Below, piece after piece: positions 2,872 through 41,800 of a stretch of DNA of 64,000 nucleotides. Made by a program: the position numbers and the translations under genes. Source of the DNA: an uncultured Bacteroidia bacterium (lineage in GTDB: Bacteria; Bacteroidota; Bacteroidia; Bacteroidales; ML635J-15); contig CACYQN010000007.1 in the NCBI GenBank assembly GCA_902776565.1, forward strand, positions 122,246 through 186,245, read 5' to 3'. Each line of letters starts with the position of its first letter. Position 1 is the first letter of the stretch. Under the pieces are notes generated by a model. The model made no database searches and was not told the DNA's origin. It saw only the letters and a program-made list of their open reading frames with translations.

Positions 2872-2991
2872 CGGTCTGATTACGAAGCGTTATACTTTTT
2901 GTGTATTAGCGTCACGCTTTGTTTGTAGGTTGTCCGTTTGGCGCTGACGGGCATATATAGTTGCTCACGACACTCATAAGTGATATGTTAT

Positions 2992-5900
2992 ATGAGGAAA
3001 TTATTTATTTTAACCTTCTGTGTATCATTTGCAGTAGGAGCATTATCGCAGACCGACACAACCGCAATATTCCATAAGGCAGATTCTCTTAATGAATTAG
3101 GTGCCATTTTGATAAATGAACGAAAATATAACGAAGCTCTCGATTTGTTCAATCACGCGGCAGAAATGACAAAAGATGTCGCTGGAGGGCTCAACTTGCA
3201 TTATGCCACCACATTGAGGCACATTGCTAAGATTTATGACCGCACAGCCGATTACCAAAATGCTTTGAAATGCTACACGCAGGCAATGGAAATCCGAAAA
3301 AAAGTCCTAGGAGAAGATAATCCCGACTATGCTTCGTCGCTGGACGATGTCGGGATTGAATATGCAACAATGGGCGACTATCAGACGGCTTTGGAATATA
3401 TGATACGGGCAATGGAAATCAGGAAAAAAGTTCTTGGAGAGGAGCATCACGATTATGCGTCATCGCTAAATAACATAGGTGTTACCTATTATTATCTTGG
3501 TGACGAACAAAATTCCTTGAAATATTATTTGCAAGCGATGGAACTCAAGAAAAAAACTTTGGGCGAGGAACATCCCGACTATGCTATGTCGCTAAATAAT
3601 GTTGGCATTGCATACAAAAGCATGGGTGATTACCAAAGTGCTTTGAAATATTACCTGCAAGCTAAGGAAATAACAGCTAAATCCTATGGTGAGGAAACTC
3701 CAAGATATGCATCCATACTAAATAATATTGCTATTTGTTATCAAAATTTGAAAAACTACCAGAAAGCTTTGTCGTATAATAAGCAGGCATTGAAAATAAG
3801 AGAAAAGGTTCTCGGTGTAAATCACCCCGACTATGCATATTCATTGAACAATATCGGTACGGTGTATGAAAATATGGGTGATTACCAGACAGCTTTGAAA
3901 TATTATATGGAAGCATTAGAAATAAGGGGAACGACTATTGGCACGGGACACCCTAAATATGCAGTAACGCTTAACGATATTGGAGGCGTGTATTTCGACA
4001 TGGGTGATTACCAGAATGCTTTGAAATATTTTTTACAGGCGTTAGAGATACGAAAGAAAACAATTGGCGAAGAACATCCGGAATACGCATCTTTGCTGAA
4101 TGATATAGGCATTGTGTACAGTGACATGGGCGATTACCAAAACTCTTTGAAATATTTAATGCAAGCACTTGAAATCCAAAAGAAAGTTTTTGGTGAGACT
4201 CATCACGAATGTGCATTGACTTTGGGTAATATCGGCCTTGTGTACGATAATATGGGCGATTACCAGAATGCGTTGAAATATCATACGCAATCAATCGAAA
4301 TAAAAAGAAAAAATTGGGGAGAAGATAACCTAAGTTATGCTAAATCGTTGAATAACATAGGTATTGTGTATAATAATATGGGAGATAGTCAGAATGCTTT
4401 GAAATACTACAATCAATCGATGGAGACAATTAGGAAAATACAAGGCGAAGAACATCCTGATTATGCATCTTCTCAAAACAACATTGGTTCTGTGTATGAC
4501 AAAATGGGTGACTACCCAAACGCTATGAAGTATTACTCAAAGGCTTTGGAAATCCGAAAAGAAGTTCTTGGAGAAGAGCATCCTCTTTATGCATTGACGC
4601 TATATAATATTGGAAGGGCATATTTCGGAGAAAACGACTATTCTAATGCTATTAAGGCAAATAAAGATGCATCGGATATATGTAAACGCAACTTAATCAG
4701 AAACTTTTCGTTTATGACGGCACATGAGCGCGAAGCCTACTGGACATCAACGAACAAATATTTCTACAGGAACATAAATTATATGTATCATTTGCCCGAT
4801 GACACACTGGCAACAGCAACTTCATACGATGCAGAACTAATTACCAAAGGTTTGCTTCTTGCTTCGGAAATAAATATGACAAATATTATAATGGAGAGCG
4901 GTGATTCCACCTTGATTTCCGACTATGAGACTTTGAAGACTATGCACTTGCAGTTAGACAAGGAACTGGAGAAACCGATTTCAGAACGAGTCTCCGACTG
5001 CGATTCGCTTAATGAAGAAATCCAGAAGTTTGAGAGGCGTGTTGTGGGAAAAAGCAAGGAGTTCGGCGACATTACCAATTTCATAAAAATCGACTGGAAA
5101 GAAGTTCAAAATTCACTCAAATCCAACGATGTGGCAATAGAATTTTCCTCCTTTACAGAGAATGATACAACAAAATTTGTCGCGCTTGTGCTTACTAAAG
5201 ATATGAAAGCACCTGTCAGCGTTCCGCTTTTCAATCAGTTTGAAATGCAAAAGTTGCAGAGAGGTATAGCACCTGTAAAATCCGAAACGCAAAACGATGA
5301 AGAAAACCGCGGAGCAACAACTGTCGCTACCAAACGACAGGGCATCTACGAATCTACAGGACTTTACGACCTGCTATGGAAACCTCTGGAGAAATATTTC
5401 CCCGAAAATCCTCGTATCTACTTTGCTCCATCGGGAATGTTGCACCAGATTGCCGTTGAGTATGCACCAATTGACAAGGAAAAGACCATTTCGGACAAGT
5501 ACGAAATATATCGTATGTCATCGACTCGTTTCTTAGCAATGGAATATATGCCTAAACCAATGAAAAATTCGGTACTTTATGGTGGCATCTACTACGATAG
5601 CGACACCACAACAATGAAACAGGAAAGCGACAGATATTCAACGCGCAGTGCAACAAACACAACAGCTGTTAGCATAAGCCGGAGCGGAGACCGTGGAAGC
5701 CTCAGCTATCTGCCAGGCACCAAAACAGAGGTCGAAAACATTGTCGGCAAGATGAAGAAAAAGAAAATTTCTACAACCATCTTTGAGGGGTCTCAGGCAA
5801 ACGAAGAATCGTTCAAGGCTTTGTCGGGCAAAGAAATTTCTACTCTACACGTTGCCACGCACGGATTTTTCCTGCCTTCCGACGAAAAGATGTCGGGCGA

Positions 5901-6330
5901 CCAATCGCTCATCCAGTCGGGACTATTAATGTCGGGGGCAAACCTTGCTTGGCAAAATATGCCAGTTCCCGAAGGTGTTGAGGACGGCATTCTTACCGCC
6001 AAGGAGATTAGCTTTATGGACTTGCGCAAGACCGATTTGGTGGTATTGTCGGCTTGCCAAACTGCGCTTGGCGAAATCACAGGTGAAGGAGTGTTCGGTT
6101 TGCAACGTGGTTTCAAAAAAGCCGGTGTTCACACTATTATCATGAGCCTCTGGCCTGTGGACGACAATGCAACTTTGTTGATGATGACCGAATTCTATAC
6201 CAACCTAACCAAAGGAATGTCGAAACGCGAAGCCTTCCTTGCTGCACAAAACAAGGTAAAAACTACAGAAGGCTTCGCAAATCCGAGGTTCTGGGCAGCA
6301 TTCATTATGCTTGATGGAAACGAAAAGTAA
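2992..6330 (+). CDS. Secreted TPR-repeat CHAT (caspase HetF-associated) domain protease
   Basis: Signal peptide MRKLFILTF..., about 13 42-aa TPR units, catalytic LHVATHGF and VLSACQT motifs, FWAAF terminus; ATG 2992 preferred over GTG 2980. Confidence 0.9.
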   Translation: MRKLFILTFCVSFAVGALSQTDTTAIFHKADSLNELGAILINERKYNEALDLFNHAAEMTKDVAGGLNLHYATTLRHIAKIYDRTADYQNALKCYTQAMEIRKKVLGEDNPDYASSLDDVGIEYATMGDYQTALEYMIRAMEIRKKVLGEEHHDYASSLNNIGVTYYYLGDEQNSLKYYLQAMELKKKTLGEEHPDYAMSLNNVGIAYKSMGDYQSALKYYLQAKEITAKSYGEETPRYASILNNIAICYQNLKNYQKALSYNKQALKIREKVLGVNHPDYAYSLNNIGTVYENMGDYQTALKYYMEALEIRGTTIGTGHPKYAVTLNDIGGVYFDMGDYQNALKYFLQALEIRKKTIGEEHPEYASLLNDIGIVYSDMGDYQNSLKYLMQALEIQKKVFGETHHECALTLGNIGLVYDNMGDYQNALKYHTQSIEIKRKNWGEDNLSYAKSLNNIGIVYNNMGDSQNALKYYNQSMETIRKIQGEEHPDYASSQNNIGSVYDKMGDYPNAMKYYSKALEIRKEVLGEEHPLYALTLYNIGRAYFGENDYSNAIKANKDASDICKRNLIRNFSFMTAHEREAYWTSTNKYFYRNINYMYHLPDDTLATATSYDAELITKGLLLASEINMTNIIMESGDSTLISDYETLKTMHLQLDKELEKPISERVSDCDSLNEEIQKFERRVVGKSKEFGDITNFIKIDWKEVQNSLKSNDVAIEFSSFTENDTTKFVALVLTKDMKAPVSVPLFNQFEMQKLQRGIAPVKSETQNDEENRGATTVATKRQGIYESTGLYDLLWKPLEKYFPENPRIYFAPSGMLHQIAVEYAPIDKEKTISDKYEIYRMSSTRFLAMEYMPKPMKNSVLYGGIYYDSDTTTMKQESDRYSTRSATNTTAVSISRSGDRGSLSYLPGTKTEVENIVGKMKKKKISTTIFEGSQANEESFKALSGKEISTLHVATHGFFLPSDEKMSGDQSLIQSGLLMSGANLAWQNMPVPEGVEDGILTAKEISFMDLRKTDLVVLSACQTALGEITGEGVFGLQRGFKKAGVHTIIMSLWPVDDNATLLMMTEFYTNLTKGMSKREAFLAAQNKVKTTEGFANPRFWAAFIMLDGNEK

Positions 6331-6373
6331 GTTGAATGGTTTATGAGTTTAAGATGGTTTGAAAGTTGAAACC

Positions 6374-6427
6374 AACAACTTCAAACAATACGAAACAATT
6401 TCAAACAACTTCAAACAATATGAAACC
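6374..6427. repeat. 10-bp tandem repeat (AACAAYTTCA-like, about 5 units)
   Basis: aacaacttca aacaatacga aacaatttca aacaacttca aacaatatga. Confidence 0.8.
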
Positions 6428-6457
6428 TTTTATAATGCTGGATGGGAACGACAATTA

Positions 6458-6496
6458 ATTTACGAGTTACGAATGATGATTTACGATTTACGATTT
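6458..6496 (-). repeat. Heptamer array (AAATCGT on the minus strand)
   Basis: atttacg agttacg aatgatg atttacg atttacg attt. Confidence 0.75.
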
Positions 6497-6587
6497 TTTT
6501 TCAACTCCCAGGCAACGAAATTGACTTTTAAGTTGTCATAGTAGTGAAAAGAAAATTATATTTGCAAAAATTATATACTAGATTATT

Positions 6588-7076
6588 ATGAGTAGAATAA
6601 AAATTTTGTTTTTAATAGGAACGATAATTACTTGTTGTTCAATTGTCAATGCACAGAATCTTGACAATATCGGCTTTTTCTCCCAGTCGGGTGGCGATGA
6701 GTTTGTCCAGTATTCCTTTGGCGGCACATTCGGCAGTGTATTGTATGGCGAAAACGGTTCGTTGACTATTACGTCGGAATATGTGGATACGCTAGGTACC
6801 AGTGGTTTGTTGACGGGGGATGATAATCGTCGTGTGGCATTGGGCGAAGGTATTTCTGTGTATCCTAATCCTACGGCATATTTTGTAAATGTGTCGGTAA
6901 GGGATTCCGATTGTGCATCGGGACCAGTGGAAATTTATGATACGAACGGTGTGCTTGTGCTTTCGCGAGCAATAGATAGTTTTGGCAATGAATTTTCGGT
7001 AGATTTGTCTGGGCTTGCAAATGGCACCTATATAATGAGGATAGGTAAGGCAAGTGCAAAAATTGTTAAACAATGA
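6588..7076 (+). CDS. Small T9SS type A sorting (CTD) domain protein
   Basis: Signal peptide; VYPNPT...IYDTNG...DLSGLANGTYIMRI...KIVKQ CTD signature. Confidence 0.85.
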   Translation: MSRIKILFLIGTIITCCSIVNAQNLDNIGFFSQSGGDEFVQYSFGGTFGSVLYGENGSLTITSEYVDTLGTSGLLTGDDNRRVALGEGISVYPNPTAYFVNVSVRDSDCASGPVEIYDTNGVLVLSRAIDSFGNEFSVDLSGLANGTYIMRIGKASAKIVKQ

Positions 7077-7083
7077 AAACAGA

Positions 7084-8292
7084 ATGATTATGAAGAGAAT
7101 AGCGATATTGTTCATATTTGTGCTGGCAGTGGCTACGTTATTTGCGCAGAATGTACCGCAGACGGTCAATTTTTCGGCAGTTTTGCGTGATACCACTGGC
7201 AATATTCTGCCCGATACCAATGTGAGGTTGCAACTGATATTACGCGAAGGAGGACCGGAAGGAAATCCGATATATACCACAACTACCACCACAACAACTA
7301 ACTCCAATGGCTATGTGTCCGTAATGCTTAACAGAGGCTTGTCGTCGTATGGAACGCCTTTTACTCAGATTCCGTGGGAGAATGGTGATTTCTGGTTTCA
7401 GTTGGATTATAAGACCGACGACATGGCAGATTACAGGACGCAGGGCTGTTATGAACTGACTAGTAATTTTTATGCGTTTATGGCAGGTCAAGCCAATAGC
7501 CTTGAGGGTATAGATTTCGATGTTGAAGGCTTGGAGAATGGTGATGCCCTAATGTATAATTCTGAAACTGGCAAATTTGAAGCGCGTGAGCTTCGTCCAC
7601 CTGCACCACCAGCCCTGTCGGTTGTGCTTGAGGCCGGAAACGATGCAGGAGGAATGAGAATATCCAATCTTGCTGCACCCGTTGCTTCCAATGACATTGT
7701 GACCAAGGAATATGCCGATTCGGTCTATCATCGGATTATGACAGCAATTACTAATATAAATTGTTCGCACAACGGGCACGAGTATGTTGACCTTGGTCTG
7801 CCAAGCAGAACTTTGTGGGCAAAATGCAATGTGGGCGCAGCAACGCCAGAAGGTTTGGGCGATTTTTATGCGTGGGGGGAAATCTATCCCAAGAATAATT
7901 ATAGTAGGGATACGTATGTATATGGAGATGAGCAACTTGATTCCTTGCCTGCTGATGCTGATGTAGCTTCTGTATTTTGGGGCGGCGGTTGGCGTATTCC
8001 AACAGTCGACGAAATGGAAGAATTGAGAAGTTATTGCGTATGGAAGTATGTTCAGCAGAACGGAAGGAACGGATTTCAGATAATAGGTCCAAACGGCGGT
8101 TCGATATTCTTGCCTTGTGGTGGATACAAGTATGGAACTTATCATTCTGGCAATAATACTATAGCAATGTATATAACGGCTACTGCAGGAAGAATCCTAT
8201 ATTGTCTTTCTTATCGCTTGGGATTGGCCGGGCAAAGTAGTTTCGTAGGTTTTGAAATACGACCAGTGTTTAGATTTGAAAATAATAATTAA
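7084..8292 (+). CDS. Secreted fibre-like protein with DUF1566-like (HEYVDLGLPS) C-terminal domain
   Basis: Signal peptide, VPQTVNFSAVLRD N-domain, LSVVLEAGNDA...ISNLAAP...DIVTKEY neck motif, HEYVDLGLPSRTLWAKCNVGA...WRIPT...IRPV. Confidence 0.7.
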   Translation: MIMKRIAILFIFVLAVATLFAQNVPQTVNFSAVLRDTTGNILPDTNVRLQLILREGGPEGNPIYTTTTTTTTNSNGYVSVMLNRGLSSYGTPFTQIPWENGDFWFQLDYKTDDMADYRTQGCYELTSNFYAFMAGQANSLEGIDFDVEGLENGDALMYNSETGKFEARELRPPAPPALSVVLEAGNDAGGMRISNLAAPVASNDIVTKEYADSVYHRIMTAITNINCSHNGHEYVDLGLPSRTLWAKCNVGAATPEGLGDFYAWGEIYPKNNYSRDTYVYGDEQLDSLPADADVASVFWGGGWRIPTVDEMEELRSYCVWKYVQQNGRNGFQIIGPNGGSIFLPCGGYKYGTYHSGNNTIAMYITATAGRILYCLSYRLGLAGQSSFVGFEIRPVFRFENNN

Positions 8293-8308
8293 TTGTAAAG
8301 TCTTGAGT

Positions 8309-9631
8309 ATGAATAGGTTTTTTCTTTTGATATTTTCCCTAGCAATAGTATCGTCGGTGATGTCGCAGGAAGTTCCGCAGACGGTTGTATTTTCGGCTGT
8401 TGTGCGAAATTCGAATAATGAGGTTATTGCAAATTCTCCGATAGATGTAAGGTTGACATTTCTTGAAGGCGGGCAGTATGGCACTCCTGTATATTGTGCT
8501 GTACATAGGACGGCGACAAATTCGTCGGGTAGTATGCTTGTTAAACTGAATCGCGATATTCTGTCGTGCGGTTGCAACGAGGCATCTGTCTTGTCGTTCG
8601 AGGATATACCGTGGGAGAACGGTGACTATTGGATGCAAGTGGAATACCGGACCGATACGACTGGCAGTTTCTTATTGCTCGGAAGACTTGAATTGGCATC
8701 CACGGTATATGCATTTGTTGCAGACAAGACATTGGAACTTGTTGATGTAGGGTTCTCTGCGGAAGGTGTACACAATGGGGATGTGCTTGGCTATAATGAG
8801 GATGCACGTCAATTTGAGCCTGTAACTATAGCCCACGACCCCGAAGTATCGGGATTGGCGGAAGTGCTTGCAGTAGGAAATTCGGCAGAAAATAGGCATA
8901 TTGTTGATCTCGCGCCTCCAGCTGCAGCTCAGGATGCAGTAACAAAGTCGTATCTTGATTCGCTGGTAAATGTGTATATTGATATTGTTGATTCTCTTGG
9001 TGGAGTTTTGCCTACGTATCCCGAAGGAAACAATGGTGTGTATAGAACTCACGAATATGTTGACCTTGGGCTTCCAAGCGGAACAATGTGGGCAAAATGC
9101 AATGTCGGAGCATCAAGACCAGAAGAATGTGGCGATTATTATTCTTGGGGCGAAACACAGCCAAAGGATATTTATAATGATTCGTCATATACATACCATG
9201 ACGATGTACTTATGCTTCCATATAATAAAGATGCTGCAGCTGTAAACTGGGGCAACGGATGGAGAATGCCTACCCAAGACGATTTTGCTGAGTTGATGAG
9301 TAATTGTATATGGCGATGGACAACATTGAACGGAGTTGATGGATATCTTGTCAGTAGTTTCAACGGGAACAGCATTTTTTTGCCTGCTTGTGGTTATCGT
9401 TTTGATGGAAGTTTCTATATATCAAAGTCATCCGACCGGGATGCTAGCACGGGCGGTTACTATTGGCTTAGTACGTCGGGCTTGGGTCAAGCAGAGACTT
9501 CAACAGGTTTTTTTAGGACGCCACAGTTTTCTGTGCTTTCGAGATGGACTGTATCTTATGGAGTTACTGATATAATTAATTACAGAGCGGTTGGACAAAA
9601 TGTTCGTCCAGTTTATACTCCAGTAGAGTAG
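8309..9631 (+). CDS. Secreted fibre-like protein with DUF1566-like C-terminal domain (paralog)
   Basis: Same architecture: VPQTVVFSAVVRN, LAEVLAVGNSA...DAVTKSY, HEYVDLGLPSGTMWAKCNVGA...WRMPT...VRPV. Confidence 0.7.
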   Translation: MNRFFLLIFSLAIVSSVMSQEVPQTVVFSAVVRNSNNEVIANSPIDVRLTFLEGGQYGTPVYCAVHRTATNSSGSMLVKLNRDILSCGCNEASVLSFEDIPWENGDYWMQVEYRTDTTGSFLLLGRLELASTVYAFVADKTLELVDVGFSAEGVHNGDVLGYNEDARQFEPVTIAHDPEVSGLAEVLAVGNSAENRHIVDLAPPAAAQDAVTKSYLDSLVNVYIDIVDSLGGVLPTYPEGNNGVYRTHEYVDLGLPSGTMWAKCNVGASRPEECGDYYSWGETQPKDIYNDSSYTYHDDVLMLPYNKDAAAVNWGNGWRMPTQDDFAELMSNCIWRWTTLNGVDGYLVSSFNGNSIFLPACGYRFDGSFYISKSSDRDASTGGYYWLSTSGLGQAETSTGFFRTPQFSVLSRWTVSYGVTDIINYRAVGQNVRPVYTPVE

Positions 9632-9665
9632 ATAAATTTATATTGCCAATTAGATTGTTAATGAT

Positions 9666-11327
9666 ATGAATAGAATAGTTTTGTTAATTATAATAATAGC
9701 AGTTGCGGTTGCTTCATTTGCACAGACTGTTCCGCAGACTGTAAATTTTTCGGCAATCATCCGTGATGCCGACAACGTTCTGCTTGCAAATACTCCAGTA
9801 AATGTAAAAATTTCAATCCTTTCTGGTGGACAGAATGGAACTGTTGTATATTGTGCCGAACATAGTACCGTTACCGATGCTAATGGTTTTGTTTCTATCC
9901 AGCTTAACCGTGGCGAATATACTTGCGGTTGTAATAGCGCGCTCAACGTTCCTTTTTATGGTATTCCTTGGCATCTCGGCAATATATGGATGCGAGTTGA
10001 ATATAGGACAGATGGCGATTATGTGAATTTGGGCACTAAGGAAATAGCAAGCAATTATTACGCATTGGTGTCGAGGAAGGCAGAGAAACTGTCGAATATA
10101 AATTTTTATGTTGCCAATGCTCACGATGGCGAGGTGCTTGTTTATAGGGATGATATGGGATACTTCATTCCTATGACTTTGGACAGCTCTTATTATACAG
10201 AACTTCCAGCACCTTTAATGTCTGATGTTATTCGTAGTGGCAATTCGGCTGATGGAAGAAGGATTTCCGGTCTGGCAAACCCTGTAGATTCTAGCGATGC
10301 TGCAACAAAGTCGTATATTGATTCATTAGTTTCTGTTATTGATGCAACTGCCGAACATCTGTTCGATCCGCCTGTAATTGTTGCACCGGAAGTAGTAACA
10401 TCTTCATATAGGAATTTGACTTCAAATAGAGTGACTTTATATGGTTCGGTATATTATAATGGTGGTGAGCCAGCTACATGTGGTTTCGTATATGGCGTTG
10501 ACGAGCATAATATGTCAGATTCCGTAGTGGCGGACGGTGATGTTGGAGGATATAGCTACGAAGTTTCTGGTTTGCTGCCTTCTACTCAGTATTATTTCAA
10601 GGCTTTCGCAGCAAATTCTGTCGCAACAACCTATGGTGCGGTTGGCTCGTTTAAAACTGCGGTCGAAGCTGGCAGTTGCATAACCGGAACTTTTACAGAT
10701 TCGCGCGACGGAAATGTATATGCTACGGTTACCATTGGTGAGCAGACATGGATGGCGGAGAATTTGCGGTATAAGGGAAGTATCCCTTTCGCTGATGAGT
10801 ATCAGCCATACGTTATAGCAACAGATCAATATGTTGTATATCCGAATAACGATAGTTCAAATGTTGCCGTATATGGTTATCTATATAGTGAAACTGCTGC
10901 ATTAAATGGAACTGTTGCGTCGTCGCAAATTCCAAGCGGATTGCAAGGTGTTTGTCCGGATGGGTGGCATCTGCCAAGCGAAGGCGAATGGCAGCAGCTG
11001 ATAGATATGTTTGACAGGACTATTGTCTCTCCGCAACTGGCGGGAAGTTCCGAACTTTGGACAAGAGCCAATAGCCTATATGTCCATAATGCTAATTTCG
11101 GAGCAAGTGGTTTTAATGCAGTTCCTGCAGGAATATATACTTCTACAGGAGCTATGAACGAAAGGTATCAAGCTTTTGGACTTTCTGGTTTCTATTGGTC
11201 ATCAACTTACGATGAACCATTTGAACTTAAATTTTTAAATATTGCATATACTCAATGTGGTCTTGTTGTTGATCATGTATTTAGTCCTTATTATGCATAC
11301 TCTGTCCGTTGTGTCCGCGACAATTAG
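9666..11327 (+). CDS. Secreted fibre-like protein with FN3-like and FISUMP (Fibrobacter succinogenes major paralogous) domains
   Basis: VPQTVNFSAIIRD N-domain; GLLPSTQYYFKAFA FN3-like segment; FTDSRDGNVYATVTIGEQTWMAENL, GVCPDGWHLPS, SVRCVRD. Confidence 0.8.
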   Translation: MNRIVLLIIIIAVAVASFAQTVPQTVNFSAIIRDADNVLLANTPVNVKISILSGGQNGTVVYCAEHSTVTDANGFVSIQLNRGEYTCGCNSALNVPFYGIPWHLGNIWMRVEYRTDGDYVNLGTKEIASNYYALVSRKAEKLSNINFYVANAHDGEVLVYRDDMGYFIPMTLDSSYYTELPAPLMSDVIRSGNSADGRRISGLANPVDSSDAATKSYIDSLVSVIDATAEHLFDPPVIVAPEVVTSSYRNLTSNRVTLYGSVYYNGGEPATCGFVYGVDEHNMSDSVVADGDVGGYSYEVSGLLPSTQYYFKAFAANSVATTYGAVGSFKTAVEAGSCITGTFTDSRDGNVYATVTIGEQTWMAENLRYKGSIPFADEYQPYVIATDQYVVYPNNDSSNVAVYGYLYSETAALNGTVASSQIPSGLQGVCPDGWHLPSEGEWQQLIDMFDRTIVSPQLAGSSELWTRANSLYVHNANFGASGFNAVPAGIYTSTGAMNERYQAFGLSGFYWSSTYDEPFELKFLNIAYTQCGLVVDHVFSPYYAYSVRCVRDN

Positions 11328-32950: not shown

Positions 32951-35062
32951 TTATCGGATTTCAATCTTTTTTGTAGTGCAGTTTCCGTATTTATCGATTA
33001 CCTTTATTATATATGTACCACCGCTTAAGTTAGAAGTGTTAATTGTGTGAATGTCCGATTCAATCTCCGACTCGACAATGCAACGTCCTGTTATGTCGTA
33101 CAATGTCAAGTGCGACAAGTTGTTGCCTTCTATTATGACTTCTGTTGTTGCAGGGTTGGGGTATATGGCGATGTCGTCCATGTCTATCTCATGTCTGCTT
33201 GTTGGTTCTCCAACCGAGTATGCAATCTTGAATCCGCCTGCACGCCCATTAGCGTCGGTTGAGAATGAAATTGATGCGTACTCTCCGTCAAAACTTATTG
33301 CTTCTGGAAGAGTGTCACCTGAAAATTCGGCAAATAATCTTCCGTTACGCAAAATCCTCACAAAGTCTTTTCCGTATTCTGTATCAAGTTCCAAAAACTC
33401 AAAAGTAAAGTTTGATGTGCTATCTGGCCTTATTTTCCAAGTGCAACTTGTATTGTTGTTGTAGTTCCAACGTCCGCTTCCGTCCTCTATGGTGTCTGTC
33501 ATTTCGGTAAGATTCAATAGCGACTTGCAGAATTTTGGCTTAACAGGTTCATACGATATTAGCCAGCCGTCGCCCGAAGCTGTTTCGTCGGAAACAAACT
33601 TTATTAGCATCGAAGTGGAATTTATCTCGTAACTTTCCTCTATGGCATCTTCGCCGAATATGCTGGCTACAATAGGAGCGTCCTCGTCGTCGCCTGCGTA
33701 TATGATAATGTAGTCGGTGGCATCAATGTCGAACTTTTCAATCTTAACAGTATATCCCGAAACTGAATCGTGTTGCGTTATATGCCACGAGCAGTCGCTT
33801 TCGGCAGCATAGTCTCCAAGCGGACCGCTACCATCCTCTATTGTGCCTTCGTAGAAGTTGATTTCCTTGAGTCCTTCGCAGCTTTGGTTTTCGTATTTTG
33901 GTGTGGCATTGATGATTACCTCGTGTGCAAGTCGGAAGTTTGAACCACCTGGCGACAAATTGCTGACAGTGAAAAATCCATCATAGGAACCGCCCCATCC
34001 CCAGTTGATATGGTAGCGTGTGGAATCGCTGTATCCGTCGAATACGAAGGCGTGTCCGCTCTCATATACATAGTCGCCCCAGCCTGCATAGTAAAGCGGA
34101 ATCTTCCTGTCGAGATGGTTAACCAGAATGCCGTTCCAGATTGAGTCGGGAATAACGGTGTCGTTCTCGATGTTGTCGGGGATTACCGTCGGCAGGCTGT
34201 CCTTGAAGATGTACCTAGCTTCATCGCTGTAGCCAAAGTAGTTGCGCATAGTGTAGGCTCCCTTGTGGTTGTTCATACCGCTACCATTTGGACCATAGTT
34301 CATATCAACAGATACGCCTATGTTGTAGAGCAGACGTGCAAGGTTTTCGTTGTAGTCGGTTGGTTTCACAGGCATAAAGTCGTAGTCGTAGTGCTGTTCG
34401 GCAAAGTTTACCTCCAGATGACCGTAGTCGGGATGGTCGTATCCGTAGCTTCCTGTACCCTGTGTCGGGTATCTGAAATAATTGAAAATCTGTGCAATAG
34501 CAGTTGCTACACAACCTACAACGACGTGTCCGTCGGCACCTCGTGAATCTTCGGGGCATTGGGTATTGAAATATTTGCCTTGGTTCCATTTTGTTATCAG
34601 AAGCGGAGATACGGTTCTAACTGCACGCGGCTGAAAATCGGCTTGCAGATAATATCGCCATTCGTCTTGGATATGCTGGCTTGGAACAACATTGTTCTTT
34701 ATGGCGTATGCAATTTGCTCGGAGTATGATTTTAACACAGCCTCTACACCCGGATGACGACCGTTTGCCTCACAGGAACTTTCGTGCGAGAATGCAAGCA
34801 ACGGCTCCACCGATTTATTTGCCGAGACAATCACAAATCCCGTCGGTTCAAGGTTATAGACATAAAAGACAGCTGTCCCGTCGTATGTTTCCGTGTAGAT
34901 ATTTGCAAACTTGTATTCGCTTGGATTTGAGCCTATTGCAGAGAACCGCTCTGTGATTATGTTCTGCGCTACAATTTTCCCTTCATCAATGCTAATGTTC
35001 TGTGGTAAAGCCATTCCCATTGAAGCTATCACTATTGCTACGAGCAAAATAATTTTTTTCAT
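32951..35062 (-). CDS. Peptidase C10 (streptopain/interpain-like) with Spi prodomain, two CUB domains and T9SS CTD
   Basis: WNQGKY, GCVATAIAQ (Cys), GHAFVFDGY (His), INWGWGG; CUB motifs CSWHI and CTWKI; IYPNPA CTD. Confidence 0.9.
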   Translation of the reverse strand: MKKIILLVAIVIASMGMALPQNISIDEGKIVAQNIITERFSAIGSNPSEYKFANIYTETYDGTAVFYVYNLEPTGFVIVSANKSVEPLLAFSHESSCEANGRHPGVEAVLKSYSEQIAYAIKNNVVPSQHIQDEWRYYLQADFQPRAVRTVSPLLITKWNQGKYFNTQCPEDSRGADGHVVVGCVATAIAQIFNYFRYPTQGTGSYGYDHPDYGHLEVNFAEQHYDYDFMPVKPTDYNENLARLLYNIGVSVDMNYGPNGSGMNNHKGAYTMRNYFGYSDEARYIFKDSLPTVIPDNIENDTVIPDSIWNGILVNHLDRKIPLYYAGWGDYVYESGHAFVFDGYSDSTRYHINWGWGGSYDGFFTVSNLSPGGSNFRLAHEVIINATPKYENQSCEGLKEINFYEGTIEDGSGPLGDYAAESDCSWHITQHDSVSGYTVKIEKFDIDATDYIIIYAGDDEDAPIVASIFGEDAIEESYEINSTSMLIKFVSDETASGDGWLISYEPVKPKFCKSLLNLTEMTDTIEDGSGRWNYNNNTSCTWKIRPDSTSNFTFEFLELDTEYGKDFVRILRNGRLFAEFSGDTLPEAISFDGEYASISFSTDANGRAGGFKIAYSVGEPTSRHEIDMDDIAIYPNPATTEVIIEGNNLSHLTLYDITGRCIVESEIESDIHTINTSNLSGGTYIIKVIDKYGNCTTKKIEIR

Positions 35063-35828: not shown

Positions 35829-38800
35829 TTGTTCGGTAGAGTATTAAAATATATTTTTGTCGGTGGACTTATGGCTGCGATGATGGTCGTAGCTTTTGTG
35901 CCCTCTAATGCCAAGAACGGCAGCAGAGGACATTATCCGTCGTTGCAGAAATTTGCGGAACTACCTGGTCCAGACGACGATACCACAAAGACCGAAGGCA
36001 ATGCCAAGTTCCCGCTCCCAAAGGAAAATGTAAATCCTTCCGACAATACCGACAACAGCCCTCTATATGGTTCCGACCCGTCGAACGTAAGCACTTCGGT
36101 GGAATACGACCCCGAAACCGACAGCTACAACTTCCAGAAGAATGTTGACGGAATGCCAATAGGTACGCCCTACAACATGCCTTTCGACGACTATGTGAAC
36201 TACAACTTCGAGAAGGCTATGAACTCGTACTGGCATCAGCGTGCGAAGAAAAACCGCGAGCAGAACCAGGAGATAAACACCAACTTGATTCCTCACCTCG
36301 AAGTAGGCGGTGAGATTTTCGACCGCATTTTCGGAGGAAACGTAATCGACATAAAGCCACAAGGTTCTGCCGAACTTACGCTCGGACTTGAATACACCCG
36401 TACCGACAACCCTGCTATCGACTCAAAGCAGCAGCGTCAGGTAAACCTCGACTTCGACGAGAAAATACAGATGAACGTCGTCGGACAAATCGGTACTAAG
36501 ATGAAAGTCAACATCTCCTACGACACCGAAGCCTCTTTCGACTTTGAAAACAACGTAAAACTCGAATACACAGGCGACGACGACGACATCATACAGAAAA
36601 TCGAGGCTGGTAACGTTTCGCTTCCTTTAACTGGAACACTCATCCAGGGTAGCCAGAGCCTTTTCGGTGTGAAGACCGAACTGAAATTCGGAAAACTGAC
36701 GCTCACAGGCTTGCTGTCGCAGAAAAAGAGCGAAACTTCAACCATCAACGTCGAAGGCGGAAGCACGACCAAGGAGTTTGAAATAAAGGCCGACAACTAC
36801 GAAGAAAACAAGCACTTCTTCCTGTCGCACTACTTCAAGGAAAACTATGACCGTTCAATGACGAACCTGCCTGTGATAATGGGCGGCGTTACAATCAACC
36901 GCGTGGAAGTGTGGGTTACCAACAAGACAGGCAACTACACCGACGCCCGTAACATCGTGGCTCTGGTTGACTTAGGTGAATCAAACAGCAACGACATACA
37001 GTCTATGTACGTTTCAAGTTCTCTGCACAACAACACGACCGTTCCGCCATACAACGACGTAAACATTCTTGGTAACTTGGCGCAGGACTATCCCGAAATA
37101 AGGGACATCAACACGGTTAGCAGTACCTTGCAGAACTTGCAGATGTCAGGCGGAACCGACTTCGAGAAAATTGAGTCGGCACGAAAACTTAACCCGTCGG
37201 AATATACCCTTAATGCACAGTTGGGTTACATTTCGCTCAATTCAAAACTAAATGCCGACCAGGTTCTGGCAGTCGCCTACGAATATACGGTCAACGGAGA
37301 AGTATTTACGGTTGGTGAATTTTCAAACTCAGCCATAGCCGCTCCACAGACTCTGATTGTAAAGTTGATTAAGGGAACATCGTTCACTCCTAGCAAGAAG
37401 AACTGGGACCTGATGATGAAAAACATCTACAACATCGGAGCATACCAGATTACTCGTGAGGACTTTACGGTTGACATACTTTACACCAACGACAAGACAG
37501 GTACCGACCTCACCTACATTCCTGCAGGAGCAATCGACAGCATACAGCTTTTGCGTGTGATGGGACTCGATAACTTGAACACAAACAACGACCCCTATCC
37601 CGATGGAATGTTCGACTACGTTGAGAACTTCACTATCAGCTCGTCGGGTGGACGAATAATATTCCCTGTGCGTGAACCTTTCGGTTCGTATCTGTACGAC
37701 AAGATTACTGGCGGAAACAGCGCGTTGAACAATGTTGCAGACGGCTATGTATTCCCCGAACTGTACGACAGCACCAAGAGCAAAGCTCAGCAGATGGCCG
37801 AGAAGAACAAGTTCAAGCTCAAAGGCCGCTACAAGTCAAACAGCAGCAGCGAAATTTCGCTCAATGCAATCAACGTTCCGCAGGGAAGCGTTTCGGTCAC
37901 GGCTGGTTCTACTCTGCTGGTAGAGAATGTTGACTATACGGTTGACTACAACCTTGGCCGTGTTAAGATTCTGAACCAAGGTATTTTGGAAGCTGGAACA
38001 CCTATTTCCATAACCCTTGAAAGCAACTCTGTCGGAAGCATGCAGACAAAAACCCTTACCGGTCTGCACGCCAACTACGACTTCTCCAACAACTTCAACA
38101 TCGGAGCGACAATATTGCACTTGAAGGAAAAGCCGATGACACAAAAGGTTAACATTGGCGAAGAACCTCTGTCGAACACAATCTGGGGAGCAAACCTCTC
38201 GTACAGAACCGACTGGCCATTCCTTACAAAAGTCATTGACTTCCTGCCGCTTATACAGACAAAGGAAATGTCAACCGTGACATTCAACGCCGAATTTGCA
38301 CAGTTGCTTCCCGGTCACTCGAAAGCCATAGGCAAGGAAGGTGCCGCCTACATCGACGACTTTGAAAGTTCGAAGATTACAAACGATGTAAAGAGTTATG
38401 TCAGCTGGTCAATCGCAAGTACGCCAAACGATTCGATACTGTTCCCCGAAAGCTCGAAGATAAACGACCTTGATTACGGCAAGAACAGGGCGCGCCTGTC
38501 GTGGTTCGTTGTTGACCAGACCTTGCACGAAAGCTCATCAACTATAAGCATTGAAGACCGTTCAAGCCATTATACCCGACTTGTTTACGAAAAGGAACTT
38601 TTCCCCAACCGCGAAAGCGAAAGCGCAAACCTTGAGAAGAATCTTGCTCCGCTGAACCTTGTTTTCTATCCAAACGAGAAAGGTCCTTACAACTACGATG
38701 TTGCAGGAATGAACTCGTTGGGCTTGCTTGAAAATCCGCGCAAACGTTGGGCTGGTATCCAGCGACAGCTCACTACTACCGACTTCGAGGATGCCAACAT

Positions 38801-41800
38801 CGAGTATATTGAGTTCTGGATGATGGACCCGTTTGTCGAAGATTCTACCAACCCCGGCGGTGACCTATATTTCAACCTTGGCGACATAAGCGAGGATATT
38901 CTGAAGGACGGAAGAAAAGCGTTTGAACAGGGACTTCCCGCTCCGTCGCTTGAAAATCCAGTTGACACAACAGCTTGGGGTATTGTACCTAACAGCCAAG
39001 CACTTGTAAGCGCATTTGACAACAGCGCCGAGATTCGTTTCGCACAGGATGTCGGTTTTGACGGTTTGAGTACCGAAAACGAAACAACTTTCTTCAGCGA
39101 CTACTTGGAACAGGTGAAAACCATGTTCGGCGAAAATTCCCAAGCCTACCAGATGGCACTTGCCGACCCCTCGTCGGATAACTTCCACCACTACAAGGGT
39201 AGCGATTACGACGAACAGGGTCTGAACATACTTCAGCGCTACAAATATTTCAACGGATTGGAAGGCAACTCAATACCGCGTGAATATCAGACCGAGACCT
39301 ATATCACCAACTCTACAACAACTCCTGATGTTGAGGATATAAACAGGGATAACACCTTGAGCGAATCGGAAAATTTCTTCCAATACCGCGTCAGTATCCG
39401 TCCGCAAGATTTGATTGTTGGTCAGAACTACATCGCCGACAAGACAACGGTTACCGTTACGCTTGCAAACGATGAGACTTCGCAGGTTTCTTGGTATCAG
39501 TTCAAAATTCCAATTTCTGAATATTCAAAGAAGGTCGGTTCTATTTCCGATTTCAAGTCAATTCGCTTTATGCGAATGTTTATGACAAATTTCGATACCA
39601 CCACCTGCCTGCGTTTCGGAACACTTGACCTTGTTCGTGGTGAATGGCGCAAGTACGACGACTCTTTCCTCCAGCCAGGCGAATATGTAGTCAACGAATT
39701 GGAAAACACTTCGTTTGACGTGTCGGCGGTCAATATCGAGGAAAATGCAAGCCGTCGTCCTGTAAACTATGTGCTGCCTCCGGGCGTTACACGCGAACAG
39801 AACACAATGAACCCGCAGTTACAGCAGCTCAACGAGCAGGCAATGACCATAAAGGTGATTGACCTTGCCGACGGTGATGCACGTGCCGTTTACAAGAATG
39901 TTTACCTTGATGTAAGAAAATATTTGCGTATGCAGATGTTTGTCCACGCCGAATCGGTTGTCGGCAAGGACGAAATCAAGGATGGTGACATCAGCGTATT
40001 CGTGCGCCTTGGAACCGACTACAAGAACAACTACTACGAATTTGAAGTTCCGCTGAAGGTTACTCCCGAAGGCTATTACTATGGCGACGACACCGAATCT
40101 CCCGACAGATATTTGGTTTGGCCTGAAGAGAATGACATTAACATTGTATTCGAGGACCTTACCAAGGTTAAGGAAAACCGAAACGAACTTATCCGTCTCG
40201 GAAACCAGAACGTCGGCTTGACAAAACTCTACTACGAGATGAACGAGCGCGGAAGGATAAGCGTCATGGGTAATCCTACATTGTCCAACGTGCAGACAAT
40301 CATGATAGGTGTACGAAATCCGAAGCAGGTTACTCTCAATGGTGCCGACGACGGTCTGCCAAAGAGTGCCGAGGTGTGGGTAAACGAGTTGCGTCTTACC
40401 AACTTTAACGAAAAGAGCGGTTGGGCGGCTACGGCTCGCGCTACTGCAAAACTTGCCGATTTTGGTACGGTAACCCTTTCGGGAACAACCAAGAAGCCGG
40501 GATTCGGAGCTTTGAACTCCACTATTAAGGACCGTCTGACCGAAGAAATTTATCAGTACGACTTCTCATCAAGTTTTGAGTTTGGAAAGTTCTTCCCTGA
40601 ACGCTTCAATGTAAGAATTCCATTGTATGTAGCTGTGTCAGAGAATGTTTCAAATCCAGAATACGACCCGTTAAGCCCCGACGTGCTTATGAAGAATACT
40701 CTTAGCAATCCCGACATTTCAAAGGAATATAAGGACAGTATCAAGCACCTGTCGCAGGACTATATCAAGAGGACAAGCGTAAACCTTACCAATGTCAAGG
40801 TAAACGGCAAGCAGGGACAGAAGCCGCACATCTATAATCTGTCGAACTTCTCGTTAAGCTACGGCTACAACAATATTTTCCAGCGCGACCCGAACACAGT
40901 TTTCCGCACCACGATAACACATACAGCTTCATTCTTCTACAATTACAACGCAACTCCGAAGATTGTGGAGCCGTTAAAGAATGTAAAGCTGTTCAAGAAA
41001 AAGGCATTCCAGATTCTCAGGGACTTCAACTTCTACTATCTGCCGTCACAACTTTCGTTCAGGACAAACCTCAACCGTCAGTATGGCGAAACACAGATAC
41101 GAAACGTATATGACCCGTCGTATTCGTTGCCAATAAGCGTAATAAAGGACTTTACAATAATCCGCCAGTACGACTTCAAGTACAACTTCTCGAAGAACTT
41201 GAAGTTTGAATATACCGCTACCAACAATGCCCGTATCGATGAGCCGGAAGGCCGTCTGTACAAGGGAGACCCCGAATACGAGCAGAAGATGGATTCCATC
41301 TGGAAAAACTTCAAGACTTTTGGTCGAAACACAAGTTTCTACCAGCAATGGAGTGCATCATACACATTGCCAATCAACAAGATTCCTATTTTCAACTGGA
41401 TTTCGGCAAGCGTAAGGTATCAGGGCTCGTACAACTGGACGGCTGGTGCAATAACTGCCGATACGCTCAACATCGGTAATGTCGTGCAAAATGCCAACAC
41501 AATGTCGGCAAGCACACAGTTCAACTTGCTCAACCTCTACAACAAGGTCAAATACCTGAAGGATGTAAACAACAAGTACCGTGGTCGTGCCTCAACCAAG
41601 AAGAAGGAAACCGAAACCGTTACTTACGAGGAGAATATCAACAAGCTGGCTGCTGGCAAGAAGAAGACAATAAGCCACAAGCTGAAGACCAAGAACGTAT
41701 CGATAAAGGTTACCGACGACAAAGGTCGCCCGATAACTGCCGATATGCAGGTAATTGACGACAACAAACTGTCGTTCACCGTCGAGAAGGATGTCGAGGA

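Follow-up and report, generated by a model that had tools for sequence, protein, structure and literature searches.

How might fibre proteins that carry no secretion tag reach the surface of a Bacteroidota cell, and what would a small tagged protein encoded directly 5' of them contribute? The question is raised by a locus of an uncultured Bacteroidia bacterium of the order Bacteroidales (assembly GCA_902776565.1), which was analysed within a window of 64,000 nucleotides (contig CACYQN010000007.1, positions 122,246 to 186,245, forward strand); coordinates are given in the numbering of this window. At 6588-11327 on the plus strand the list of open reading frames (ORFs) contains a tight operon of four genes, one for a small protein ending in a type IX secretion system (T9SS) C-terminal domain (CTD) and then three paralogous fibre genes whose products have none. 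The pair of small CTD gene and fibre gene is real, well defined and widely conserved. The explanation preferred here, at a probability of about 0.45, is that the small protein would lend its T9SS tag and anchor in trans to fibres like the MAT adhesins of Bdellovibrio bacteriovorus.

The small, adaptor-like protein (162 residues; 6588-7076, plus strand) is divided into three parts. A hydrophobic N-terminus ending in ...VNA|Q is taken as the signal peptide (residues 1-22, 6588-6653); it is followed by a peptide of ~68 residues (residues 23-90, 6654-6857) and a type-A T9SS CTD (residues 91-162, 6858-7073). The CTD was recognised by Pfam (Por_Secre_tail on residues 91-161, E = 4.9e-12, 46.4 bits with a cut-off of 27) and by NCBIfam (type-A sorting domain TIGR04183, 42.6 bits, cut-off 23), and no family of either collection matched the intervening peptide. 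The original prediction, made from the sequence alone, had described the same three parts with a peptide of ~55 residues; its anatomy holds and its peptide is lengthened. Judged by its sequence, it is an ordinary type-A substrate of the T9SS. An AlphaFold2 (AF2) model of it has the signal peptide as a helix (residues 3-23) and the CTD at a per-residue confidence (pLDDT) of 83-97, with residues 26-86 of the peptide below 50 and not packed on the CTD. A low-confidence peptide beside a confidently modelled CTD is the pattern to be expected where a segment folds upon contact with a partner.

The three fibre genes follow on the same strand, and each encodes a signal peptide. Fibre 1 (402 residues; 7084-8292, or starting at 7090) is composed of an N-domain (7147-7530), a neck (7624-7722) and a tip (7759-8289), and fibre 2 (440 residues; 8309-9631) of the same elements at 8366-8773, 8882-8962 and 9029-9628, both tips being assigned to the DUF1566/FISUMP superfamily. 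In fibre 3 (553 residues; 9666-11327) the N-domain (9723-10121) and neck (10245-10322) are followed by an Fn3-like stretch (10548-10658) and a FISUMP tip (10689-11321). The fibres align over their first ~225 residues, with 33-42% identity to fibre 1, and then diverge; orthologues of fibre 3 are 69-96% identical to it over residues 1-235. Invariant in the alignment are the N-domain motifs VPQTV.FSA..R, GG..G..Y, LNR and IPW..G..W, the middle columns G153, L156, Y158 and F165, and the neck columns V181, G185, N186, A188, I193, L196, A197, P199, D204, T207, K208, Y210, D212 and S213, which reproduce the shared N-domain, short motif and neck that had been read from the three paralogs originally. 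Por_Secre_tail, CHU_C and TIGR04183 had no match at E <= 0.1 in any of the three fibres, and the earlier statement that they lack a CTD is borne out by these Pfam and NCBIfam scans. Reading of the sequence together with family scans revealed no lipobox in the fibres and no barrel, usher or autotransporter gene in the operon.

Signal peptides were read by eye from the sequence. Immediately behind them stands a Gln that does not vary in the alignment of small proteins and hardly varies in that of N-domains, and Gln at +1 of signal-peptidase-I substrates is the 'Q-rule' of Bacteroidetes. Because both kinds of protein have Sec signal peptides with Gln at +1, they should meet in the periplasm. The genes are separated by 7-13 nt (small gene to fibre 1), 16 nt (fibre 1 to fibre 2) and 34 nt (fibre 2 to fibre 3), and neither reading of the sequence nor a scan revealed a terminator-like site between them. 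Contigs assembled from RNA libraries of the ruminant gut (four of four runs, from four studies) extend over the operon and span the boundary from the small gene to fibre 1; such contigs cannot prove transcription or a single transcript, and their cover is a weak hint that the operon is expressed.

The tips differ in how firmly they can be assigned. That of fibre 3 is above the cut-off for FISUMP in both Pfam (PF09603, E = 4e-29, 102.7 bits, cut-off 33.9) and NCBIfam (TIGR02145, E = 5.8e-37, 128.1 bits, cut-off 41.65). The Fn3-type matches before it are weak (E = 0.008-0.04), so that of the FN3+FISUMP tip first proposed the FISUMP part stands and the FN3 part is a weak match. For fibres 1 and 2 no match to Pfam Lcl_C/DUF1566 (PF07603) was obtained at E <= 0.1 in the tips, but their tip profile matches Lcl_C at 94.7% and FISUMP at 96.6% (hhalign) and the tips are 39-46% identical to the stretch of another protein (P0037) that Pfam calls Lcl_C; on these grounds the original label 'DUF1566-like' is fair as a statement about the superfamily, and fails as a claim of Pfam membership. 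BLASTP of the fibre 2 tip against a second protein (P0041) was not significant, and nothing in the PDB came up at E < 0.4 in sequence searches that used fibre 2, the FISUMP tip or the N-domain profile as query. A resemblance of the neck to phage fibre stalks had also been noted, and only weak matches to phage tail families were found for it: Pfam Phage_T7_tail (PF03906) at E ~0.01 and 14.9-15.8 bits (cut-off 25.2) over ~27-35 residues, and PHROG tail families at E = 6e-5 to 7e-3. Judged by these scores, the likeness to PF03906 is a shared short motif and not membership.

The N-domain is what connects these fibres to a much larger family. A profile built from the four N-domains of the genome retrieved 26,041 representative clusters at E <= 0.001 (21,211 at E <= 1e-10), and in all of the 150 best representatives the domain lies at residues ~1-140, behind a signal peptide. 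Pfam (E <= 1e-5) was run on 105 representatives, in which FISUMP (18), Lcl_C (14), Laminin_G_3 (3), collagen repeats (7), C1q (1) and Peptidase_S74 (1) were found and Por_Secre_tail in none; by these scans the family appears as a rule to be without a T9SS tag. Modules of the collagen, C1q and S74 kinds typify trimeric fibres. Because relatives carry such trimer-type modules, the family looks like chimeric fibres of the MAT type, and the modules, taken with the homology of the N-domain to that of MATs, fit trimeric fibres with exchangeable tips. This homology was recognised through NCBIfam Bdello_MAT_N (NF053851), which matches 66 of 72 relatives' N-domains at E <= 0.01 (best 7.8e-14), no other NCBIfam family recurring among the 72. 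The window's own fibres score lower (fibre 1 19.3 bits, fibre 3 21.1 bits, fibre 2 no match; cut-off 60), and on these profile scores the N-domain is a distant homologue of the Bdellovibrio MAT N-domain and not a member of that family.

The N-domain of fibre 1 (7090-7530) was modelled with AF2 as a beta-sandwich followed by a helix, with seven strands in residues 26-123 and a pLDDT of 82.8. Foldseek found only generic beta-sandwich matches in the PDB (TM <= 0.39). In a wide VIA search the best match was the CTD of PorU (6za2_B, 1068-1158; Z 7.1, rmsd 3.0, 87 residues aligned); the mirolase CTD reached Z 6.2, and unrelated sandwiches tied with the PorU CTD at Z 7.0. The base of the fibre may be CTD-like, which is a lead only, as the VIA scores are below a meaningful level. 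One protein (P0021; L032:1-1875, minus strand) has five to six tandem N-domain-like units and a C-terminal FlgD_ig match, with no small gene 5'; the FlgD_ig match may be a CTD, in which case the N-domain type of sandwich would occur as a repeat in ordinary cargo. The ~68-residue peptide was also considered as a copy of part of the N-domain, and this was ruled out (hhalign probability 0.3%); the 86% obtained for the N-domain against the whole small protein is meaningless, since only the signal peptides align.

The arrangement of small CTD gene and fibre gene was followed through three samples of genomes, which overlap and contain relatives and are not independent counts. Among related genomes the N-domain is present in 31 of 41, with up to 12 copies per genome. 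The best N-domain locus per genome was inspected at 30 loci of the same order, upstream being defined as 5' of the fibre, or in a tandem as 5' of the first one: a small CTD gene lies directly 5' in 23, is absent in 3 and could not be judged in 4 that are cut by contig or locus ends. The 26 evaluable loci thus comprise 23 positives and 3 negatives, in which a mutase, a C69 peptidase or nothing lies 5'. Pfam found Por_Secre_tail in 19 of 19 small ORFs scanned, above the cut-off in 18, and also at locus L034. In 250 further genomes drawn evenly from the phylum the N-domain is present in 70, and at the 29 best loci from this draw the small CTD gene is 5' in 24, absent in 4 and ambiguous in 1. In one distant family among these positives (f44; L064-L085), 28 of its 41 genomes each encode a single fibre, of ~780 residues, with an adaptor ~11 nt 5' that has a divergent peptide and a bona fide CTD ending in KMLLIK.

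The third sample, 79 loci of named genomes, has the small CTD gene 5' in 56 and lacks it in 11, with 12 not evaluable (56 of 67 evaluable loci). The 79 loci span rumen Bacteroidales, Paludibacteraceae, Prolixibacteraceae, Rikenellaceae, Flavobacterium, Bergeyella, Winogradskyella, Chitinophaga, Sphingobacteriaceae, Saprospiraceae, Cyclobacteriaceae and Ignavibacteria, and the order of small CTD gene then fibre is conserved across Bacteroidota. Adaptor and fibre genes lie -3 to 27 nt apart in 39 of the 51 pairs taken from other genomes. When 251 genomes were searched with a profile of just the peptide, 22 matches turned up in 14 of them; 18 of these matches lie directly 5' of an N-domain ORF, and the peptide-positive genomes other than this one are N-domain-positive without exception (13 of 13). 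At least 3,543 clusters of 89-284 residues contain the canonical peptide, as against 8 longer proteins; PF18962 was found in 114 of the 120 peptide clusters listed, which are at most named 'T9SS type A sorting domain-containing protein'. Co-occurrence of the N-domain with small CTD genes, which had been put forward with the original prediction as a way of checking it, is strongly positive across the phylum.

Several variants of the arrangement were seen in passing. The peptide module (of the type GG...Y[ST].GE...TQGF.Q) also heads longer secreted proteins (L045:1378-2298, L053:853-1728, L054:1411-2298, L046:1-1719 and L075:2726-3402), none with a neighbouring fibre except that of L075, which lies 3' of one, and Pfam finds nothing in four of the five. 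In the rare proteins P0290, P0294 and P0295 an adaptor cut inside its CTD runs directly into a fibre neck, a FISUMP tip or another tip, skipping the N-domain; these may be deletion fusions or a real variant, and P0294 stands for 12 sequences on 14 contigs. At two adaptor-less loci other genes adjoin the fibre, namely one for a DUF2490 outer-membrane-type protein 5' of it (L061:2274-2984, minus strand) and one for a SprB-repeat protein with an adaptor-like N-terminal motif 3' of it (L072:2760-3408, plus strand).

Within the genome itself, 106 CTD matches were found, of which only 3 fall in frames of 200 residues or less, and two of these three small genes lie directly 5' of the genome's only two fibre loci. 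The second pair, on another contig (L004:112-1758, minus strand), has a peptide of the canonical type and a fibre of 377 residues in which the N-domain is followed by a short helical stretch and FISUMP, without the neck motif. The third small CTD protein, also encoded outside the window (L165:1692-5074, minus strand), has 163 residues and a Por_Secre_tail match of 50.6 bits, and its gene overlaps by 4 nt the start of a gene for a 964-residue secreted Cthe_2159 beta-helix protein without CTD. All three small CTD proteins of the genome thus precede CTD-less secreted proteins; a rough estimate, assuming ~three thousand genes, puts the chance of a small CTD gene before a given gene at ~1/1000. The T9SS of the genome is complete-looking: SprA (2651 bits), PorU (1208.8), PorV (451.4) and GldM/PorM (272) are all above their cut-offs, the last three being encoded outside the window. 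SprA is present in all 71 N-domain-positive genomes of the 251, and the N-domain in none of the 52 SprA-negative genomes.

In the mechanism proposed, the operon products would be surface fibres of the MAT kind, that is chimeric, probably trimeric adhesins with a conserved base and swappable lectin-like tips. All four proteins would enter the periplasm via Sec, with a signal-peptidase-I site followed by Gln, and the ~68-residue peptide would there bind the N-domain shared by the fibres. The type-A CTD of the small protein would then take the complex of peptide and fibre to PorV/SprA. After export PorU would remove the CTD and link the peptide to anionic lipopolysaccharide (A-LPS), or the CTD would stay on an outer-membrane partner, the peptide being in effect the foot that holds the fibre on the cell. 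Since the N-domain base is common to all three fibres, one adaptor could serve them all, and elsewhere from one to three. The known T9SS passes folded proteins, removes type-A CTDs and attaches A-LPS, its cargo being held by A-LPS or by other proteins (PMC7712824). The fibres occur in gut and rumen bacteria and have lectin-like tips, for which reason attachment to glycans, particles or other cells is their probable role. Put as a principle, a T9SS sorting signal could act in trans, with tag-only proteins (as proposed, a signal peptide, a binding peptide of ~50-70 residues and a type-A CTD) exporting and anchoring separate CTD-less oligomeric cargo encoded 3' of them; this wider claim is tentative, and the odds are judged to lie somewhat against it.

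A number of observations weigh against carriage by the small protein. Contact between peptide and N-domain is proposed only, and a mirror-tree analysis of 51 adaptor-fibre pairs, among which a few loci were entered twice, gave no peptide-specific signal of co-evolution: the correlation of peptide with N-domain distances was r = 0.80 and that of CTD with N-domain distances, used as the internal control, r = 0.82 (partial correlations 0.41 and 0.48). As the CTD correlates equally, the correlation of the peptide is put down to shared history. A 1:1 complex prediction with N-domain residues 20-147 (72-row alignment) and peptide residues 23-92 (50-row alignment) scored 0.01 (mark 0.32); the partner's own fold was uncertain and no controls were run, so that binding is neither favoured nor disfavoured by this score. 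The pair is not found everywhere, a small CTD gene being absent 5' in 3 of 26, 4-5 of 29 and 11 of 67 evaluable loci in the three samples, and 57 of 70 N-domain-positive genomes are without a match to the peptide profile, which misses divergent peptides. Four of the 22 peptide matches stand at the N-terminus of longer proteins (291 to >573 residues) that are not adjacent to fibres; since the module also heads such proteins, the peptide may bind something other than the N-domain. The association with SprA amounts to little more than one phylogenetic contrast, a single family accounting for 51 of the 52 SprA-negative genomes. Bdellovibrio is not known to have a T9SS, yet its MATs reach the surface, from which it follows that the N-domain may not need a CTD partner. 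Small CTD proteins can also have other fates, PorA being a signalling ligand, and both PorA and Fjoh_0547 reach the surface without the translocon (PMC7712824).

Part of the same evidence would suit a small protein that anchors the fibres and does not carry them. The T9SS would export it by itself, A-LPS or an outer-membrane partner would hold it at the surface, and the fibres would cross the outer membrane otherwise, perhaps by a route that recognises the N-domain itself, and dock on the peptide. The conservation of the gene pair is accounted for equally by anchoring and by carriage; in Bdellovibrio the MAT fibres, whose N-domain is homologous, are exposed on the surface and require a surface element (PMC10769870), and T9SS cargo that is held by other proteins or holds them is known from group II and Mfa5 (PMC7712824). 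Such an anchor is unlikely, with two points against it: no other export route is evident, the fibres having no lipobox and the operon no autotransporter or usher gene, and SprA accompanies every one of the 71 N-domain-positive genomes, albeit as a phylogenetically weak contrast. Less likely still is a role that is linked to the fibres and is neither that of carrier nor of anchor, in which the small protein would be an assembly or quality-control factor, or a PorA-like signal of T9SS or fibre status, and the CTD would perhaps serve only to dispose of or display it. Phage fibres often need a small neighbouring chaperone, and the AF2 model does not predict the peptide to fold alone, both of which would suit a factor of this kind. 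PorA of Porphyromonas gingivalis and Fjoh_0547 of Flavobacterium johnsoniae are likewise built of a signal peptide, a short N-terminal part and a CTD, and PorA is a ligand of the PorXY system; in the accessible description, however, PorA (246 residues) has a folded FimH-like N-domain where there is here only a ~68-residue peptide, and that description makes no mention of a pairing with CTD-less fibres (PMC7712824). Furthermore, no regulator gene lies beside the pair in the loci examined, and the fibres would remain without an export signal.

It is very unlikely that the neighbours are independent, the small protein being a separate minor surface peptide that shares a promoter with fibres that are periplasmic or are released in vesicles or by lysis. 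The interaction is a proposal and the peptide module is also found in proteins away from fibres, which would leave room for independence. Against it, adjacency is kept across the classes of the phylum, with gaps of a few nt, at most loci and in both directions; the only small frames among the genome's CTD matches all precede CTD-less secreted proteins; and lectin-like, collagen and C1q tips would make little sense in the periplasm. A remnant of a prophage tail-fibre module has next to no probability, and even jointly with independence it accounts for little. Such an origin could be suggested by the weak matches of the neck to phage tail and tail-fibre families and by a gene for a XerC/XerD-like recombinase 3' of the operon. 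It was rejected because every operon protein has a Sec signal peptide, family scans reveal no other phage gene nearby, the recombinase scores as chromosomal XerC/XerD, and the N-domain belongs to the very large family described above, in which it is N-terminal behind a signal peptide; orthologous clusters in related species also speak against it.

Carriage and anchoring in trans by the small protein, the explanation preferred here, can be set beside systems already known. The MAT fibres of B. bacteriovorus (Caulton et al. 2024, PMC10769870; NF053851) share the beta-rich N-domain of ~130 residues after a signal peptide and likewise have a fibre stalk with exchangeable adhesive tips (lectin-like, S74, TNF/C1q-like). 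They are of ~1,000 residues, as against 402-553 here, and in contrast to them the present fibres belong to a Bacteroidota host with a T9SS and have a small CTD protein encoded directly 5'. For the MAT N-domain no structural homologue was found in the PDB, and it 'would presumably tightly bind a surface element' that has yet to be found (PMC10769870), as has the partner of the N-domain here. The string 'Bacteroid' is absent from the main text of that paper, and 'Bacteroid', 'Flavobacter' and 'T9SS' are absent from the two supplements searched.

Canonical type-A cargo such as RgpB and Hbp35 of P. gingivalis carries its CTD in cis, has it removed by PorU and is linked to A-LPS. The small protein is like such cargo in its signal peptide and above-cut-off CTD, in a genome with SprA, PorU, PorV and PorM, and unlike it in that the passenger is a ~68-residue peptide and the fibres are separate CTD-less polypeptides on which the signal would have to act in trans. 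In hitchhiker (piggy-back) export by the Tat pathway, as with the small and large subunits of hydrogenase, a folded partner without a signal leaves with one that bears it. Tat, like the T9SS, is a translocon that passes folded proteins; membrane, machine and signal differ, and the T9SS version is a proposal. Group II/III T9SS cargo (Mfa5 on Mfa1 fimbriae, PorU-PorV, PorZ-PorQ) provides a precedent for cargo held by proteins (PMC7712824), but these are large proteins with functions of their own, and the operon described here has no barrel gene.

Searches of the literature on T9SS piggy-back or CTD-less cargo, on T9SS and FISUMP, on fibres and on MATs yielded no description of a pair of tag-only and tag-less proteins, subscription journals being outside the search, and the original statement that no functional description of the module was known is upheld within the same bounds. 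What is new is the combination of a tag-only protein with tag-less fibres; the parts, T9SS sorting and MAT-like fibres, are known. The proposed trans-export is a plausible mechanism, undescribed in the literature searched. A protein is defined, predicted and counted as a T9SS substrate by the CTD that it carries in cis; should small CTD proteins export or anchor partners in trans, the counts for T9SS secretomes would be systematically too low. A large class of surface adhesins in Bacteroidota, at present annotated only as hypothetical, FISUMP or DUF1566 proteins, would then gain an export route and an anchor, and peptide and N-domain would form a modular handle for surface display. The peptide would become a tangible candidate for what the MAT-type N-domain binds, a point not settled for the Bdellovibrio fibres, and, were the tag shown to act in trans, the long-sought surface element bound by such domains. 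The principle would cover thousands of Bacteroidota gene pairs and other cargo besides, such as the Cthe_2159 beta-helix protein.

The remaining features of the window lie around the operon. Directly 5' of it, at 2980-6330 on the plus strand, a protein of 1116 residues is encoded whose N-terminus is hydrophobic and which contains some dozen TPR units and, at its C-terminus, a CHAT protease domain. The spacer between this gene and the operon contains short direct repeats (CAACTTCAAACAAT-like units and TTACGA units) at 6340-6520, in which one RNA-library contig has small insertions. A TATATTTG box, read from the sequence at 6557-6564 (plus strand), lies 24 nt 5' of the start codon of the small gene and matches the -7 promoter motif of Bacteroidetes, TAnnTTTG. 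A sigma-70 promoter scan gave 21 sites with 17.2 expected, the sigma-70 model being uninformative for Bacteroidota. RNA-library contigs from two of the studies start at 6585 and 6597, a weak hint regarding a promoter at TATATTTG.

The gene for the T9SS outer-membrane translocon SprA, which the original prediction had pointed out in the same window, is indeed present (35829-43292, plus strand; TIGR04189, 2651 bits). A link to the operon had no basis, since 24.5 kb of housekeeping genes lie between the two, and the shared window is a coincidence. Adjoining ruvA and sprA, at 32951-35062 on the minus strand, an ordinary T9SS cargo protein of 703 residues is encoded, with a type-A CTD of 46.2 bits.

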